Shown here: piece by piece, positions 5,925-50,310 of the stretch
Position numbering within the stretch: the first letter of the stretch is position 1
How the letters are laid out: each line of letters begins with the position of its first letter
From: Mustelus asterias
Lineage: Eukaryota
Assembly: GCF_964213995.1 (NCBI RefSeq)
Contig: NW_027590154.1
Span: 682,001-746,000, forward strand
DNA: 64,000 nt
Direction: 5' to 3'
Made by a program: the position numbers and the translations under genes
The notes under the pieces: model-generated
The model's input: only the letters and a program-made list of their open reading frames with translations
The model's database searches: none
Told to the model about the DNA's origin: nothing

Positions 5925-6390
5925 AGACATTCAATGATCTTAGAGAGGTAGGGAAGTTGGAGATGGGGCGCTAGTTTGCACAAACGGTGGGATCAAGAGT
6001 TGGTTCATTGAGGGGGAGGCTGATGTTGGCAGTTTTGCAGAGTGACAGGACCCGAGGCAAGGGAACAATTAAAACAATCAGCTGACACCGGGAAGGTGAT
6101 GGTCAGCAACTTAGTGAGAATAGAGTGAAGGGAGCAGAGGGTGAGTCTCACGGAGGTGAGCTCTGGAGGGGATGAGAGGAGATAGGAGAAAAACTAAAGA
6201 AAGAGGCAAGTTTAAGGTTCAAGGAAGGAGGAGCTTTTAGAGACAGTCTGGCTCCATGGGCCAGTGGAAGGGAGTGAATCAGCAGAGGCAGCTGATCAGA
6301 TTGTCTCAATCTTAGTGACAAAGAAGCTCCATGAGCTCCTCACACTTGTTGGAGGAGACAGGGGGGAGGGAGAGAATTTCAAAAGGAACT
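5925..6390 (-). mobile_element. Degenerate L2/CR1-group RT fragment
   Basis: Minus strand reads N*RPISNFPTSLRSL, resembling NYRPISNLPFLSKVLE, and KCEELMELL. Confidence 0.55.
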
Positions 6391-6519
6391 AACTTATGTT
6401 GGTGACAGTAAAAGGACTTGTCACACTGAGTTTAACACAAAGCTGATTTATTTATCCTTTATCCAGAATATTAACCTCCACCTGAAGTGGAATTCATTAT
6501 GATCAGAAACAGACCCAAG

Positions 6520-6794
6520 AACATAGTTCAATCCTGGATGTTATTAACAGAAGAATCTAATCACAGTAATTACATGTGAACTCTCAGGTATGTCAACAGG
6601 TTGGGCAAACAGATAAATCCCTTCCTACACGCTGAGCAGGTGAACAGCCTCTCCCCAGCATCAGTGTGCTGGTTTACAGTGAGTTGAGCTGAACCCAGTC
6701 CCAAAGTCTCTTGTCAGTGTGAACACGTTGATGGGATGTTAGTTCCTCCAATTGTCTACAGCACTTCCTGGAGTTGAGCATTCAAACAGGTTTC
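6520..6794 (-). pseudogene. Orphaned, decayed 3' fingers of the ZNF at 8337-8897
   Basis: Degenerate HQRVHTDKR and GERLFTCSACRKGF fingers plus the family 3' module; colinear with 8345 once the insertion is removed. Confidence 0.75.
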
Positions 6795-8344
6795 AGACAA
6801 GTGATCGGTTCCAGCTTTATTTCAGACTCAGTTGAAACAAAAATAAGACGTTTTAGTTGTTCAATTAAACAACAGCCTGTTCCATTTGATTACTACCAAA
6901 AGCCTGTCTATGTTCGCAGAAAGGAGGTTCGATCTATATTTTCATTTGGAATTCGTGGGGATTTTTCTTCTGATCGCAATGCATTGCTGGGCACGATCAA
7001 TGATCCAATCCAAAGTACGCATGAAATGGGGATGCCTGTTTCTCAAAATCCTCCATCTATTATAGTTAATAGGGGGAGAACATACATCGACAACCCTGCA
7101 AAGCCCAGTGTATACAATGTTGTTTCAACTCACATATGTAATCTGATTGTAAATTCAAAGGAGACAAAATGGATGCCAGTCATTTGGAAAACATACTTCC
7201 TCGGTGTGATTTGTACATGAGTGCAAGAATGAACCCTGGCCAACGATTTCAAAAAGTCCACACCACAAATTACGAGTATCAGATATCCAGTAAAGCAACC
7301 CCCAAAGAGGTCTTCAAAGTTTGCCATCTGTGAAAGCGCTTCAGCAAAGCGCATATTCAACTACTTAGAAAGGACATCACCAATAACTCTATCAGATGCA
7401 TCACCCACCACCAGAGTTTCAACCGGCCAGGAAACGCACAAGCTGTTGGCTCAAACATCATCCATCGAGAGCATTCCGAAAAGAAAAACACGTTTATCTC
7501 CAGAAGTATTGCCTGCACTCACTCCCAGGACAAGTTGCAAGTACAGAATAACAATGACTCCCGTACAACATCGGTTGAGTGCTGGACACTTCTCAACTTG
7601 GGAGGCAGAAAACAATGAAGTCCTATACTACATGCAGAAGACCAGTGGTGGTGATATCTAAGGATAAGGCAGTTGCTCCAACACCTCATCAAGAAGATCC
7701 AGTCCAAATGAGCAGACATAAGATGCATGAAACCTGACTGTCTATTTCTCGAAATCCTCCACCTGATGCACCATCCACCACCACAGTTTCAACCGGCCAG
7801 GGAAAGCGCAAGCGTTTGGATGAAACACCATCCATCGAGAGCATTCCACAAAGAAAAATGAGTTTATCTCCTAAAATATTGCCATCACTCACTCCCAGGA
7901 CAAGTTGCAAGTACAGAATAACAAAGACTCCCGTACAACATCGGATGAGTGCTGGTCACTTCTCAGCTTGGGAGGCAGGAAACGATGAAATCCTATACTA
8001 CATGCAGAAGACCAGTGGTGGTGATGACCAATCTGAGGATAAGGCAGTTGCTCCAACACCTCATCAAGAAGATCCAATCCAAAGAACGCATGAAATGGGG
8101 ATGCCTGTTTCTGGAAATCCTCCACCTGATGCACCACCCAACACCAGAGTTTCAACCGGCCAGGAAAAGCGCAAGCTGTTGCATCAAACACAATCCATCG
8201 AGAGCATTCCAAAAAGGTTTGGTTCTGCCTTTCAATTATCCTAATGAACAATGTTTGCATCTTCATAGCTGCTGACAGATAAAGTTAATAAAATACACAT
8301 TCAGTTGCCTACAACAGTTAATAAACATTTGCATTACTAAAACA
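6795..8344 (+). pseudogene. Retroposed mRNA copy (processed pseudogene) of an unrecognised gene with ~121-codon internal repeats
   Basis: 11-bp TSD AAACAGGTTTC (6784-6794, 8345-8355), AATAAA at 8287 and 8320, A-rich remnant from 8339. Long + frame broken by TGAs (7218, 7230, 7735) and one 5-bp deletion (~7655). Confidence 0.7.
7400..8215 (+). repeat. Tandem ~365-bp repeat (2.2 copies) inside the retrocopy
   Basis: gtttcaaccggccagg recurs at ~7416, ~7786 and ~8149; the units translate to near-identical peptides. Confidence 0.9.
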
Positions 8345-8891
8345 AAACAGGTTTCTCATCAGTGTGACTGCGCTGGTGTTTCCGCAGGTTGGCTAACCGA
8401 GTGAATCCTTTCTCACACTCGGGGCAGGGGAATGGCTTCTCCCCAGTGTGAACTCGCTCATGTGCCAGCAGGTTCGATGAGTGAGTGAATCCCATCCCGC
8501 AGTCAGAGCAGAGGAACGGCCTCTCCCCAGTGTGAACTCTCCGGTGGTTCAGCAGGTTGTATGAATGAGTGAATCGCTTTCCACAGTCAGAGCAGATGAA
8601 CGGCCTCTCCCCGGTGTGAATTCGCTGATGTGTCACCAGACTGGATGACTGAGTGAATCCCTTCCCACACACGGGACAGGTGAACTGTCGCTCCCCAGTG
8701 TGGTTTCGCCCATGAGCTTTCAGTTCAAATGAGTAACTGAATCCCTTCCCACAGTCCCCACATTTATAGGGTCTTTCTCCAGTGTGAACGTGCTTGTGTT
8801 TCAACAGGCCAGATGATCGGCTGTAGCCTTGTCCACACTCAGAGCACGTGTACGGTTTCACCCCACTCTTAACAGTGCTTTTACCTTCCAT
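8337..8891 (-). CDS. C2H2 zinc-finger protein, 6 fingers, truncated by the retrocopy
   Basis: ATG ([16 protein letters not shown]) at 8891, six CxxC...HxxxH fingers with TGERP/TGEKP linkers, splice acceptor tttcacag at ~8994; the stop lies within the inserted sequence. Confidence 0.8.
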
Positions 8892-9699
8892 GTTCAAATT
8901 CTGATGATACTGAGGTTCTGATGAATTGGGCGACTCTCAGATCCTGATGTGATGTTCAAATTTCCCAACTGCAAATCCTCAACTTCCAATACCCTGTGAA
9001 ATTGATTTAAAACAGAAAAAAAGAGAGTGAGAGAGAACCCACAAAACTCAAAGGCAAGTTGTGAAATTGAGCTGAATGAATCTGGTAATTTGTGGAGCTG
9101 GTACTAGGAAAAGATGACCATGAAAACAGCTGGATTGTCATAAAAACCCAACTAGTGTCCTTCAGGCGAGGAAACCTGCTCATGCAGTCTGGGCCTACAC
9201 CAGGTCTGAACCAACACAAGACTCTGGGATCAATGAGGGGAGCAAGGAAGAGAAAGATAGAGAGGTAGGAGCAGGAAGTATTGAAGGCGAGGCTTTTATG
9301 TATCTCCAACTCGACCCGAGCTTTGAAGGAATCATTAGCTCACCCACCTAGAAGGTCCAGAGCATCAGGTGTGTGTGAACATGAACACTTCCAGGTTCCC
9401 CTCCAAGTAACACACCATCCTATCATGTCTGACATCCAGTGCTCGTTGAGCAGAAATGTCCTCCAATTCAATACTGGGAAGAGGAAAGCCACTGTCTTCA
9501 GTGCTTGCAACAAAATCCACTCCTCTCTGTTGTAACTCTTTGAGGCTGAACCAGACAGTTCATAAGCTGGTTGTTAAATTTCATCCCAAGCTGAGGTTCT
9601 GATTACATATCACTAAGATTATTATATTAACACCTATAGCAGAGCTGGAGTTATTTTGCAATTCAGCAGAAACAAACCCAAATGAACTGGTTCAGTCTG

Positions 9700-46106: not shown

Positions 46107-48926
46107 CTAAACCAATTTCTTTTCGTCCATGAACCTATCTACGGATCTCTTAAACGCCCCCAAACTAGGCGCATTTACTACTGATGCTGGCAGGGCATTC
46201 CAATCCCTCACCACCCTCTGGGTAAAGAACCTACCCCTGACATCGGTTCTATAACTACCCCCCCTCAATTTAAAGCCATGCCCCCTCGTGCTGGATTTCT
46301 CCATCAGAGGAAAAAGGCTATCACTATCCACCCTATCTAAACCTCTAATCATCTTATATGTTTCAATAAGATCCCCTCTTAGCCGCCGCCTTTCCAGCGA
46401 AAACAATCCCAAATCCCTCAGCCTCTCCTCATAGGATCTCCCCTCCATACCAGGCAACATCCTGGTAAACCTCCTCTGCACCCTCTCCAAAGCCTCCACA
46501 TCCTTCCTGTAATGTGGGGACCAGAACTGCACACAGTACTCCAAGTGCGGCCGCACCAGAGTTGTGTACAGTTGCAACATAACGCTACGACTCCTAAATT
46601 CAATCCCCCTACCAATAAACGCCAAGACACCATATGCCTTCTTAACAACCTTATCTACTTGATTCCCAACTTTCAGGGATCTATGCACACATATACCTAG
46701 ATCCCTCTGCTCCTCCACACTATTCAAAGTCCTCCCGTTAGCCCTATACTCAACACATCTGTTATTCCTACCAAAGTGAATTACCTCACACTTCTCCGCA
46801 TTAAACTCCATCCGCCACCTCTCGGCCCAACTTTGCAACCTGTCTAAGTCTTCCTGCAAACTACGACACCCTTCCTCACTGTCTACCACACCACCGACTT
46901 TGGTGTCATCAGCAAATTTGCTAATCCACCCAACTATACCCTCATCCAGATCATTAATAAATATTACAAACAGCAGTGGCCCCAAAACAGATCCCTGAGG
47001 TACACCACTTGTAACCGCACTCCATGATGAATATTTACTATCAACCACCACCCTCTGTTTCCTATCCGCTAGCCAATTCCTGATCCAATTTCCTAGATCA
47101 CCCCCAATCCCATACATCTGCATTTTCTGCAGAAGCCTACCATGGTGAACCTTATCAAACGCCTTACTAAAATCCATATATACCACGTCCACTGCCCTGC
47201 CCCCATCCACCTCCTTGGTCACTTTCTCAAAAAACTCAATAAGGTTAGTAAGGCACGACCTACCTGCCACAAAACCATGCTGACTATCACCTATCAATTC
47301 ATTACTCTCCAAATAACTATAAATCCTATCCCTTATAATTTTTTCCAACATCTTGCCGACAACAGAAGTGAGACTCACCGGTCTATAATTCCCGGGGAAG
47401 TCTCTGTTCCCCTTCTTAAACAATGGGACAACATTCGCTAACCTCCAATCTTCTGGTACTATACCAGAGGCCAACGACGACCTGAAGATCAGAGCCAGAG
47501 GCTCTGCAATCACTTCTCTTGCCTCCCAGAGAATCCTTGGATAAATCCCATCCGGACCAGGGGATTTATCTATTTTCAGACCCTCCAGAATATCCTGCAC
47601 ATCCTCCTTATCAACTGTAATACTGTCTATTCTACTCCCTTGCAACCCAGTGTCCTCCTCAGCTATATTCATGTCCCCTTGCGTGAACACCGAAGAGAAA
47701 TATTGGTTCAATGCTTCACCAATCTCCTCCGGTTCCACACATAACTTCCCTCTGCCATCTATAACTGGCCCTAAACTTGCCCTAACCAACCTTCTGTTCT
47801 TGACATACCTATAGAACGCCTTAGGATTCTCTTTAACCCTATCCGCCAAAGTCTTCTCATGTCCCCTTTTAGCCCTTCTAAGCTCGCTCTTCAACTCCCT
47901 CTTAGCCAATCTAAAGCTTTCTAGTGCACTACCCGAGTGCTCACGTCTCATCCGAACATAAGCCTCCTTTTTCTTTTTAACCAACAAAGAAACTTTTTTG
48001 GTGCACCACGGTTCCCTAGCCCTACCAATTCCTCCTTGCCTGACAGGGACATACCTATCACAGACTCGCAGTAGCTGCTCCTTGAAAAAACTCCACATGT
48101 CGGACGTTCCCAGTCCCTGTAATCTCCTAGTCCAACCTATGTTTCCTAATTCTCTCCTAATAGCCTCATAATTACCCTTCCCCCAGCTAAAACCACTGGC
48201 CCGAGGTTCATGCCTATCCCTTTCCATCACTAAGGTGAACGTAACCGAATTGTGGTCACTATCACCAAAATGCACACCAACTTCCAAGTCTAGCACCTGG
48301 TCTGGCTCATTTCCCAGCACCAGATCCAATATAGCCTCACCTCTAGTTGGCCTGTCTACATACTGAGTCAAAAAACCTTCCTGCACGCTTTGAACAAAAA
48401 CTGACCCCTCTAACGAGCTAGAGCTATAACAATTCCAGTCAATATTAGTCAAGTTAAAATCCCCCATAACAATTGCCCTATTACTATCACTCCTAAGCAG
48501 GATTGACTCCGCAATCCTTTCCTCAACCTCTCTAGAACTTTTAGGAGGTCTATAAAAGACTCCCAACAGGGTGACCTCTCCTCTCCTATTTCTAATCTCC
48601 GCCCATACTACCTCAACAGATAAGTCCTCATCAAACCTCCTCTCTGACACTGTGATACAATCTCTGACCAATAATGCTACCCCTCCCCCTCTTCTACCTC
48701 CTTCCCTACTTCGACTAAAACATTTGAACCCCGGGACCTGCAGCATCCATTCCTGCCCCTGCTCTATCCATGTCTCTGAAATAGCCACAACATCGAAGTC
48801 CCAGGTACTGATCCACGCTGCAAGTTCACCCACTTTATTGCGAATACTCCTGGCATTGAAGTATACACATTTCAAACCCTGCTCCACCCCACCTCTGCAA
48901 TGCCGTGCATTGCAGTCCCCATCCAT
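46107..48926 (-). CDS. CR1 ORF2: APE endonuclease and reverse transcriptase (939 aa)
   Basis: Uninterrupted; YFNARS, ISETW, YRPP, GDFN, SDHN, QHGF, DFSKAFD, GVPQGSVLGP, FADD. Confidence 0.95.
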   Translation of the reverse strand: MDGDCNARHCRGGVEQGLKCVYFNARSIRNKVGELAAWISTWDFDVVAISETWIEQGQEWMLQVPGFKCFSRSREGGRRGGGVALLVRDCITVSERRFDEDLSVEVVWAEIRNRRGEVTLLGVFYRPPKSSREVEERIAESILLRSDSNRAIVMGDFNLTNIDWNCYSSSSLEGSVFVQSVQEGFLTQYVDRPTRGEAILDLVLGNEPDQVLDLEVGVHFGDSDHNSVTFTLVMERDRHEPRASGFSWGKGNYEAIRRELGNIGWTRRLQGLGTSDMWSFFKEQLLRVCDRYVPVRQGGIGRAREPWCTKKVSLLVKKKKEAYVRMRREHSGSALESFRLAKRELKSELRRAKRGHEKTLADRVKENPKAFYRYVKNRRLVRASLGPVIDGRGKLCVEPEEIGEALNQYFSSVFTQGDMNIAEEDTGLQGSRIDSITVDKEDVQDILEGLKIDKSPGPDGIYPRILWEAREVIAEPLALIFRSSLASGIVPEDWRLANVVPLFKKGNRDFPGNYRPVSLTSVVGKMLEKIIRDRIYSYLESNELIGDSQHGFVAGRSCLTNLIEFFEKVTKEVDGGRAVDVVYMDFSKAFDKVHHGRLLQKMQMYGIGGDLGNWIRNWLADRKQRVVVDSKYSSWSAVTSGVPQGSVLGPLLFVIFINDLDEGIVGWISKFADDTKVGGVVDSEEGCRSLQEDLDRLQSWAERWRMEFNAEKCEVIHFGRNNRCVEYRANGRTLNSVEEQRDLGICVHRSLKVGNQVDKVVKKAYGVLAFIGRGIEFRSRSVMLQLYTTLVRPHLEYCVQFWSPHYRKDVEALERVQRRFTRMLPGMEGRSYEERLRDLGLFSLERRRLRGDLIETYKMIRGLDRVDSDSLFPLMEKSSTRGHGFKLRGGSYRTDVRGRFFTQRVVRDWNALPASVVNAPSLGAFKRSVDRFMDEKKLV

Positions 48927-48977
48927 GCATCCCTCACTTTCAGCCCCACTACTCAGGATCCCTCCCCCCCCCCCGAA

Positions 48978-49907
48978 TCAGTTTAAACCTCCCTGCATGG
49001 CCTTAGCAAATTTACCCCCCAGGATATTGGTCCCCTTCTGATTAAGGTGTAGACCATCCTTCTCATAGAGGTCACACCTTCCCCAGTACGAGCCCCAATT
49101 GCTTAAGTACCTGAACCCCTCCCTCCTGCACCATCCCCTCAGCCATGAATTCAAACCTTCCCTCTCCCTATTCCTCTCTAAACTATCCCGTGGTACAGGC
49201 AAGAGTCCAGAGATAACCACTCTGTCAGTCTTGGCCTTTAGTTTCCACCCCAACTCCATAAATCCCTGCCTAATATCCCCTTCCCCTATCCTCCCTATGT
49301 CGTGTGTCCCCACATGTACAATAACTTGTGGTTTATCTCCCTCCCCCCTAAGAGTCCTGAATACCCTGTCAGACACATCCCGGACCCCAGCCCCTGGTAG
49401 GCAACACACCAACCCTGAGTCCCTACCTTTAGTTCCGACCCTCCTATCTGTCCCCTTAATTGTGGAGTCCCCAATCACAAGGCCCAGTCTTTTACAGCCC
49501 CTAACCACCTGAGCTTTCTCACTCGGCTCACCCCCAGAGATCTGCTCTCTATGCTCAGTTGATTCCTCCTCAACTGTAGCCTCCAGCACCGAAAACCTAT
49601 TATGGAGGGGAACCGCCCCAGGGGATTGTCTTCCCGATTGCTTCTTACCCCTCCTCCTGGCATTGACCCAAGCCTCATTTCTAGGAGTTACTATTTCTCT
49701 ATAACTCCTATCAACTTCCACCTCCGCCTCCCGAATTATGCGGAGTTCCTCTACCTCCCCCTCCAGCTCCTTTACACGCTCCTCCAGTAGCTGCAATCTA
49801 ATGCACTTCTTACAACTAAAATCTCCTGAAACACTACTGGATTTCCTCACCACATACATCCCACAGGAGATGCAGCATACTGCCTGAACTGCCATCCCTG
49901 AAGCCAT
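48978..49907 (-). CDS. CR1 ORF1: Cys-rich zinc finger/coiled coil plus SGNH esterase-like domain
   Basis: CxxC...CxxC, heptad LEERVKELEGEVEEL, then IGDS, HVGTHD and DGLHLN blocks. Confidence 0.9.
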   Translation of the reverse strand: MASGMAVQAVCCISCGMYVVRKSSSVSGDFSCKKCIRLQLLEERVKELEGEVEELRIIREAEVEVDRSYREIVTPRNEAWVNARRRGKKQSGRQSPGAVPLHNRFSVLEATVEEESTEHREQISGGEPSEKAQVVRGCKRLGLVIGDSTIKGTDRRVGTKGRDSGLVCCLPGAGVRDVSDRVFRTLRGEGDKPQVIVHVGTHDIGRIGEGDIRQGFMELGWKLKAKTDRVVISGLLPVPRDSLERNREREGLNSWLRGWCRREGFRYLSNWGSYWGRCDLYEKDGLHLNQKGTNILGGKFAKAMQGGLN

Positions 49908-50310
49908 TACCAGCAAGAAAAAAAGAAAACAAAAAACTTCCCCACACTTATAATTAGGTTAGAGGAGGATGGAAGGGTGGGATCCTCTACCAGTGTAGAG
50001 GATCGGGTATCTCCTCTGCACCAATTTATAGGGCTAGGGGCCCGAGAGAAAAAAAAAAAACTACTACTGAGGGGGAACCACCCAGGTAACTGACTTTTAA
50101 AGTTAAAATAAAAACCCTTCCCAGACTCCTTTGCTGCCCACTTCTAGTTTTCACTTTAAACTTGAAAAACTGCTGTTAAAGTAAAGGCCAAAAAAATACA
50201 CACACTAGCTGACTAATTAAATAAATAAACAATTCAATTAATCCAATTAATCTCTTACCAGCACTGCTGCTTTTCAATCACCCCTCTCAGCTTGCTCCAG
50301 TGGATCAATG

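Follow-up and report, generated by a model that had tools for sequence, protein, structure and literature searches.

A Nup153-like mRNA was, very probably, retrocopied into the stop codon of an existing six-finger C2H2 gene of Mustelus asterias, adding two residues to the protein and likely a longer, antisense 3' UTR, without loss of any finger. The gene lies in a 64,000-nt window (the whole stretch of DNA analyzed), which is a cluster of single-exon C2H2 zinc-finger (ZNF) genes among LINE fragments in a genome of 3.7 Gb. The relevant features are as follows, with the basis of each assignment in parentheses.

8337 to 8891, minus strand: single-exon C2H2 zinc-finger open reading frame (ORF) of 184 aa, with six complete fingers, ending in HTDEKPVLF* (six stretches matching Pfam zf-C2H2)
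8345 to 8355, no strand: target-site duplication, ZNF-coding-side copy, containing the last linker codons (exact repeat)
6795 to 8344, plus strand: processed pseudogene of an mRNA of the elasmobranch Nup153-like/RanBP2-ZnF family, short isoform without the zinc-ribbon exon (spliced paralogs, exon joints, and homologs)
8320 to 8344, plus strand: AATAAA, cleavage site, and short interrupted poly(A) remnant (no A-run at this place in genomic paralogs)
8229 to 8309, plus strand: 81 nt shared without mismatch by the insert and two spliced paralogs of contig C5, the sole long perfect antisense match (sequence comparison)
6816 to 6821, minus strand: second AATAAA, inside the insert (motif only)
6784 to 6794, no strand: target-site duplication, other copy, with the original TGA starting at 6784 (same sequence in all 16 copies)
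6782 to 6784, minus strand: original, preinsertion TGA stop of the six-finger gene (in silico empty site; same register and stop in a contig of run X3)
6570 to 6783, minus strand: three decayed fingers (7 to 9), noncoding before the insertion and likely the old 3' UTR (in silico site, 16 copies, and empty-site contigs)
6447 to 6452, minus strand: candidate native ZNF poly(A) signal (motif only)

Structure and origin of the insert

The exact 11-mer AAACAGGTTTC is present at positions 6784 to 6794 and 8345 to 8355 and encloses an insert of 1550 nt (6795 to 8344). This 11-mer occurs three times in the window, both strands considered, for an expectation of ~0.015 per strand. At the end of the insert, AATAAA occupies positions 8320 to 8325, and the A-rich remnant begins at position 8339. 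The ORF needs the TAG of the insert to stop, and this codon (8339 to 8337) is the antisense of the poly(A)/cleavage site of the retrocopy. The first-pass annotation had reported a 1.55-kb insert between exact 11-bp duplications, the AATAAA followed by an A-rich remnant, the antisense orientation of the retrocopy (ORF on the minus strand, insert on the plus strand), and the termination of the ORF within the insert downstream from six intact fingers; each of these observations was confirmed. No KRAB domain was detected in the six-finger ORF, and no annotated ortholog of the protein was found, the best match among 7940 scored candidates displaying 66% identity. Contigs cover this ORF in runs whose RNA status is a guess only, none of the runs that contain the stretch being recorded as RNA.

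The insert comprises two copies of an exon block of ~365 nt, followed by a third copy of the first exon of the block as the terminal exon. In spliced paralogs on contigs C5 (two units) and C1, exons that are kilobases apart end at AG/GT boundaries at the positions of the insert joints, and the parental introns are absent from the insert. The pieces of the insert are 68 to 91% identical to the exons of these intron-containing genes. An A-run follows the poly(A) signal in all retrocopies shown and in none of three genomic paralogs, indicating that the tail of the retrocopy is nontemplated. The same mRNA family gave rise to two other retrocopies in the genome by independent insertions (L016 and L029), each with its own tail and, at least for L029, with its own target duplication. 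The ATG is kept in both, and it is replaced by ATA in all 16 ZNF-associated copies of the insert. The pseudogene has lost its start codon, its frame is broken, and among the copies there is no deficit of missense changes in the parental frame (35 versus 32 expected). Judged from its sequence, the insert is a processed mRNA copy that was produced by target-primed reverse transcription, has lost its coding capacity, and drifts neutrally. This mechanism had been proposed on the basis of the duplication and the poly(A), and the exon joints and the nontemplated tail agree with it. The nick site at the target, TTT/GA, can be likened to the site preferred by the L1 endonuclease, TTTT/AA. A LINE-type enzyme likely nicked the DNA at the TTT/GA of the stop.

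The source of the retrocopy was a short isoform ending in an extended exon that precedes the zinc-ribbon exon, the latter being located downstream in the C5 paralogs. The direct parent (>92% identical and containing introns) was not found in the assembly, in which the searches revealed only paralogs at 68 to 92% identity, these searches giving lower bounds. A contig of 2329 nt in run X2 departs from the insert at only 6 positions over a stretch of 222 nt. Retrocopy L029, located on C1, is interrupted by a short repeat, and an 87-nt retrocopy piece on C14 (L030) follows a similar repeat end and was possibly carried along with the repeat.

A full HMMER search with the insert-encoded protein retrieved 15 homologs among 1.84 billion representatives; a word-index search revealed no longer homologs of the insert ORF, and none of the three insert ORFs scored above the Pfam cutoff. 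Ten of the homologs were looked up, and nine were named shark proteins, mostly "uncharacterized," including one "Nup153-like" and one "RanBP2-type domain" protein; all of the named homologs were from sharks. A RanBP2 zinc ribbon was present below threshold in 3 of 11 scanned homologs (20 to 22 bits versus the Pfam cutoff of 27), and the best PDB matches were Nup153 zinc fingers (E value of 5e-5). The family is organized in tandem in elasmobranchs (L021 to L025, L078, and L079, at ~107.9 to 108.3 Mb of C5 and 34.72 Mb of C1; proteins P0001 to P0022) and is characterized by an exon encoding a conserved MSAGHFSAWG motif, a weak RanBP2-type zinc ribbon, and a Nup153-like label in some members. Exon blocks are repeated in tandem in one homolog. 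The coding exons of the C5 and C1 paralogs differ by 10 to 30% from the retrocopy, whereas the terminal noncoding part (8209 to 8339) is nearly identical in L021, L023, and L025, whose poly(A) signal has become one base shorter. This contrast may reflect fast coding evolution or gene conversion. The existence of at least three independent retrocopies suggests that the family is expressed in the germ line. No paper on this locus, judged by title or start of abstract, or on the shark Nup153-like family was found in the part of the literature that was covered.

The genome contains 44 matches to the insert, a number that could be accounted for by an ordinary transposable element, either a SINE or a nonautonomous LINE, and a high-copy element was what the first-pass annotation considered as contrary to its own reading. 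However, 16 of the places where the insert occurs have common flanks and a common junction, as expected for segmental copies, and only three clear independent insertion sites were identified. In addition, the exon joints match those of intron-containing genes, and the protein homologs are annotated shark genes. The spliced paralogs refute an origin as a transposable element, to which we assign practically no probability. The order of the exons could be explained in another manner, since each C5 paralog contains a single block, yet exon 2 and exon 4 appear again after exon 6 in the insert, as if the template had been a circular or exon-repeated RNA rather than the transcript of a gene with tandem exon blocks. 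Against this, the two blocks differ by 10%, in comparison to 3 to 5% between independent retrocopies, and the annotated basking shark homolog P0001 contains the same block three times. We therefore rejected a circular RNA as the source, which is very improbable, and retained the spliced mRNA of a gene with tandem exon blocks.

The empty site and the decayed fingers

Removal in silico of the insert and of one copy of the target restored the sequence CAC ACT GAT GAG AAA CCT GTT TGA, which reads HTDEKPV*. The preinsertion stop was thus two codons earlier than the present one (EKPV* versus EKPVLF*), and the original TGA overlaps the duplicated target by a single base, its first base being the last of that target. 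Relative to the canonical linker, the target is longer by one base, and none of the 48 canonical linkers of the window has this extra base; since the extra base is present in both copies of the target, it predates the duplication. All 16 genomic copies agree in the sequence of the downstream target copy and of the stop.

Four runs (X1, X2, X3, and X7) were compared over positions 6300 to 9300. Contigs of runs X2, X3, and X7 (organisms B, C, and D, respectively) join position 6783 to position 8345, thereby skipping 1561 nt, i.e., the insert and one copy of the target. The site is filled in X1, the fourth of these runs, and run X8 provided no contig of this locus. The empty site that the first-pass annotation had proposed to look for in related species was found in three runs. 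The junction letters were read in one of the three (X3), and the joints in X2 and X7 have the same coordinates. In the X3 contig, the 30 letters past position 6788 align without any gap to the window from position 8350 onward, three of them being substituted, and encode HQRSHTDQKCV*. For positions 6758 to 6788, none of X2, X3, and X7 is listed with a difference from the window, indicating that the stop and the losses of the second Cys and of the Phe of finger 7 are common to the three runs. The first His of finger 9 is replaced by Tyr or Asp in all three. The empty-site contigs are short (483 to 578 nt), and their orthology is based on 16 to 30 differing letters in 270 to 370 nt of the remnant and on a matching end of finger 6, the nearest paralog in the M. 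asterias genome displaying 76% identity. No true empty site was found in the M. asterias genome. Three insert-free copies of the 5' ORF (C741, C232, and C1506) were rejected as empty sites, since they are rearranged and do not contain the remnant.

Considered within the window alone, an ORF that ends inside the insert and 5' fingers that are under selection are in favor of the interpretation of the first-pass annotation, according to which the insert amputated an intact longer array and created a new six-finger DNA-binding specificity, fingers 7 to 9 having decayed afterwards. However, the stop is located in the target itself (6782 to 6784), next to an extra base that is found in both copies of the target and in 0 of 48 linkers, and the same stop with dead fingers 7 and 9 is present in all three insert-free contigs. 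Unless these contigs are not orthologous, truncation by the insert is refuted, and no longer intact ORF was observed at the empty site. We consider this scenario to be extremely unlikely. The presence of the stop and of the dead fingers in organisms lacking the insert indicates that the six-finger gene is older than the insertion. The array was not amputated by the retrocopy, and no new specificity was created, since the ORF already ended after finger 6; the fingers encoded by 6570 to 6783 are decayed, as had been described, but were already so in insert-free organisms. The insertion changed the end of the encoded protein from V* to VLF*, GFF*, or GFV*, and no finger was lost.

Copies, selection, and the antisense tail

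The unit formed by the ZNF and the insert is present at 16 places with common flanks, and uncollapsed haplotypes probably account for some of them (C182 and C132 do not differ in sequence; C122, C112, and C71 differ by ≤0.1%). A neighboring ZNF is present in 13 copies at ≥97% identity, indicating that the amplification is regional. The 5' ORF is kept in 14 of the 16 units (10 intact, 3 with a nonsense change resulting from two events, and 1 without the ATG), and the 5' part is lost in the remaining 2. Copies C741, C232, and C1506, which contain the 5' ORF and have lost the insert and the remnant by rearrangement, were not included in these counts. The ORF copies of C741 (L095 and L111) and C232 (L096 and L112) break off inside the target-site sequence, and they are adjoined by segments that resemble T-cell receptor V genes with heptamer-23-nonamer signals; the zinc-finger cluster may interleave with an antigen receptor locus. 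At window position 7135, within the retrocopy, four copies of the unit (C172, C145, C131, and C988; L073 to L076) contain a secondary insertion of 1.2 kb along with a third exon block. A paralogous family of 345-aa ZNFs (L098 to L110; 77 to 78% identity) also has many copies, several with early stops, indicating that birth and death are general in this cluster. The window contains an apparently intact two-ORF LINE at 46107 to 49958 on the minus strand (ORF1 of 326 aa and ORF2 of 956 aa), presumably CR1-like, along with many decayed copies.

Selection was evaluated by counting distinct changes in the 14 units that retain the 5' ORF and comparing the counts to those expected from a context-dependent neutral spectrum. 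There were 16 synonymous changes versus 14.2 expected (14 to 15.5 across spectra) and 13 missense or nonsense changes versus 38.7 expected (39 to 42 across spectra), corresponding to an omega of 0.30 (P = 0.001), and the 546 nt compared were free of indels. A neutral spectrum derived from the flanks and the remnant only led to the same outcome. All 24 contact positions and all 24 zinc ligand positions are invariant across the 14 copies. Some of the synonymous changes lie in clusters, which may have arisen by single conversion events; treating three to five of them as conversion led to omega values of 0.37 to 0.44 (P of 0.01 to 0.04). The substitution rate of the insert (0.069 to 0.082 per site) is that of the flanks (0.076 to 0.098 per site). 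Together, these comparisons indicate that, since the insertion, purifying selection has acted on the six fingers and that the insert drifts. Neutral dN/dS at 8337 to 8891, the outcome that the first-pass annotation had held to be incompatible with its proposal, was not observed (omega of ~0.3 across 14 copies). Its claim of selection on a truncated six-finger gene therefore holds for the selection but not for the truncation, as the gene already had its six-finger form before the insert.

Contigs of run X1, whose RNA status is guessed and whose contigs are strandless, bridge the junction between the coding sequence and the insert (8184 to 8451) and that between the insert and the remnant (6326 to 6848). 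A ZNF 3' UTR that would run through the insert, antisense to the parent family, is plausible from this arrangement. The 9229-to-9300 bin had no cover in any of the four runs and is too short to serve as a silent-stretch control. These bridging contigs, together with the 81 nt of perfect complementarity to two C5 paralogs just behind the stop, are consistent with the possibility that the insert was kept because the 1.5 kb of antisense sequence in the ZNF mRNA yields endo-siRNAs or piRNAs damping the parent family in the germ line. Precedents exist in pseudogene-derived endo-siRNAs (PMC5408686) and in antisense insertions in Drosophila 3' UTRs that trigger piRNAs (PMC13226689). However, the insert accumulates changes as fast as its flanks do, and the 81-nt block contains 4 changes versus 6 expected (P = 0.29), i.e., its conservation is within chance, with no indication that the complementary stretch was selectively kept. 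Moreover, four copies accepted the secondary insertion within the insert, the amplification is regional, and most of the insert is only 68 to 91% similar to extant paralogs. That a selected ZNF mRNA, present in 14 copies, makes germ-line piRNAs or endo-siRNAs silencing a shark-specific Nup153-like family whose direct parent is no longer found in the assembly is improbable.

History of the locus and relation to known systems

The drifting retrocopy and the selected fingers can be accommodated in the following history. In an ancestral array of at least nine fingers, a stop arose in the linker that follows finger 6, before the insertion, and fingers 7 to 9 decayed. A LINE-type enzyme would then have nicked the stop at TTT/GA, and priming by the A-tail would have generated the 11-bp duplication. 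The short tail placed an in-frame TAG right behind the target, which may explain why the insertion was tolerated. The retrocopy subsequently lost its ATG and drifts. Finally, segmental duplication of the zinc-finger cluster multiplied the unit, with selection keeping the six fingers. This explanation has to accommodate a broken ORF in 4 of the 14 copies and 2 more copies lacking the 5' part.

The insertion of a retrocopy into the stop codon of a six-finger gene that was already there is an ordinary event of a known kind. Antisense retrocopies that supply the 3' ends of host genes are a described class: in a survey by Baertsch et al. (2008), which left zinc-finger genes aside, 34 of the 726 human retrocopies with expression had contributed exons or UTRs (PMC2584115). 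The locus resembles the type Ib antisense acquisitions of that source (antisense 3' ends of SCP2, HLA-F, and KIAA0415), since the retrocopy supplies the end of the ORF and likely the 3' UTR. Unlike these, it involves no new splice, the copy interrupting the last exon at the stop codon itself and adding two residues, and it is found in a shark rather than a primate. The mechanism does not differ from that of LINE-made processed pseudogenes, which are likewise intronless, with a nontemplated tail, a target-site duplication, and a decayed ORF, although segmental duplication subsequently carried the insert along to 16 places, and the assembly yielded no direct parent for it. As in the rapidly turning over C2H2 clusters described in PMC10547256 and PMC11952569, there is birth and death of copies, loss of fingers at the 3' end, and selection on the remaining fingers; in contrast to these, the gene has a single exon, its ORF has no KRAB domain, and the fingers were lost by a linker stop rather than by an insertion. 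Antisense and small RNAs derived from retrocopies have been reviewed (PMC5408686), and antisense insertions in 3' UTRs can start piRNA production in Drosophila (PMC13226689). The likeness is one of geometry only, an antisense copy behind the stop of the host gene, and the insert differs in being without sequence constraint.

The locus thus offers a tidy, datable case of a retrocopy tolerated at the end of a protein, and it calls for caution, as an array may end at an insert that did not cause it to end there. A greater significance would follow only from silencing of the Nup153-like family by the antisense tail. The six-finger ORF provides evidence that single short members of the huge zinc-finger clusters of sharks are under purifying selection on their contact residues.
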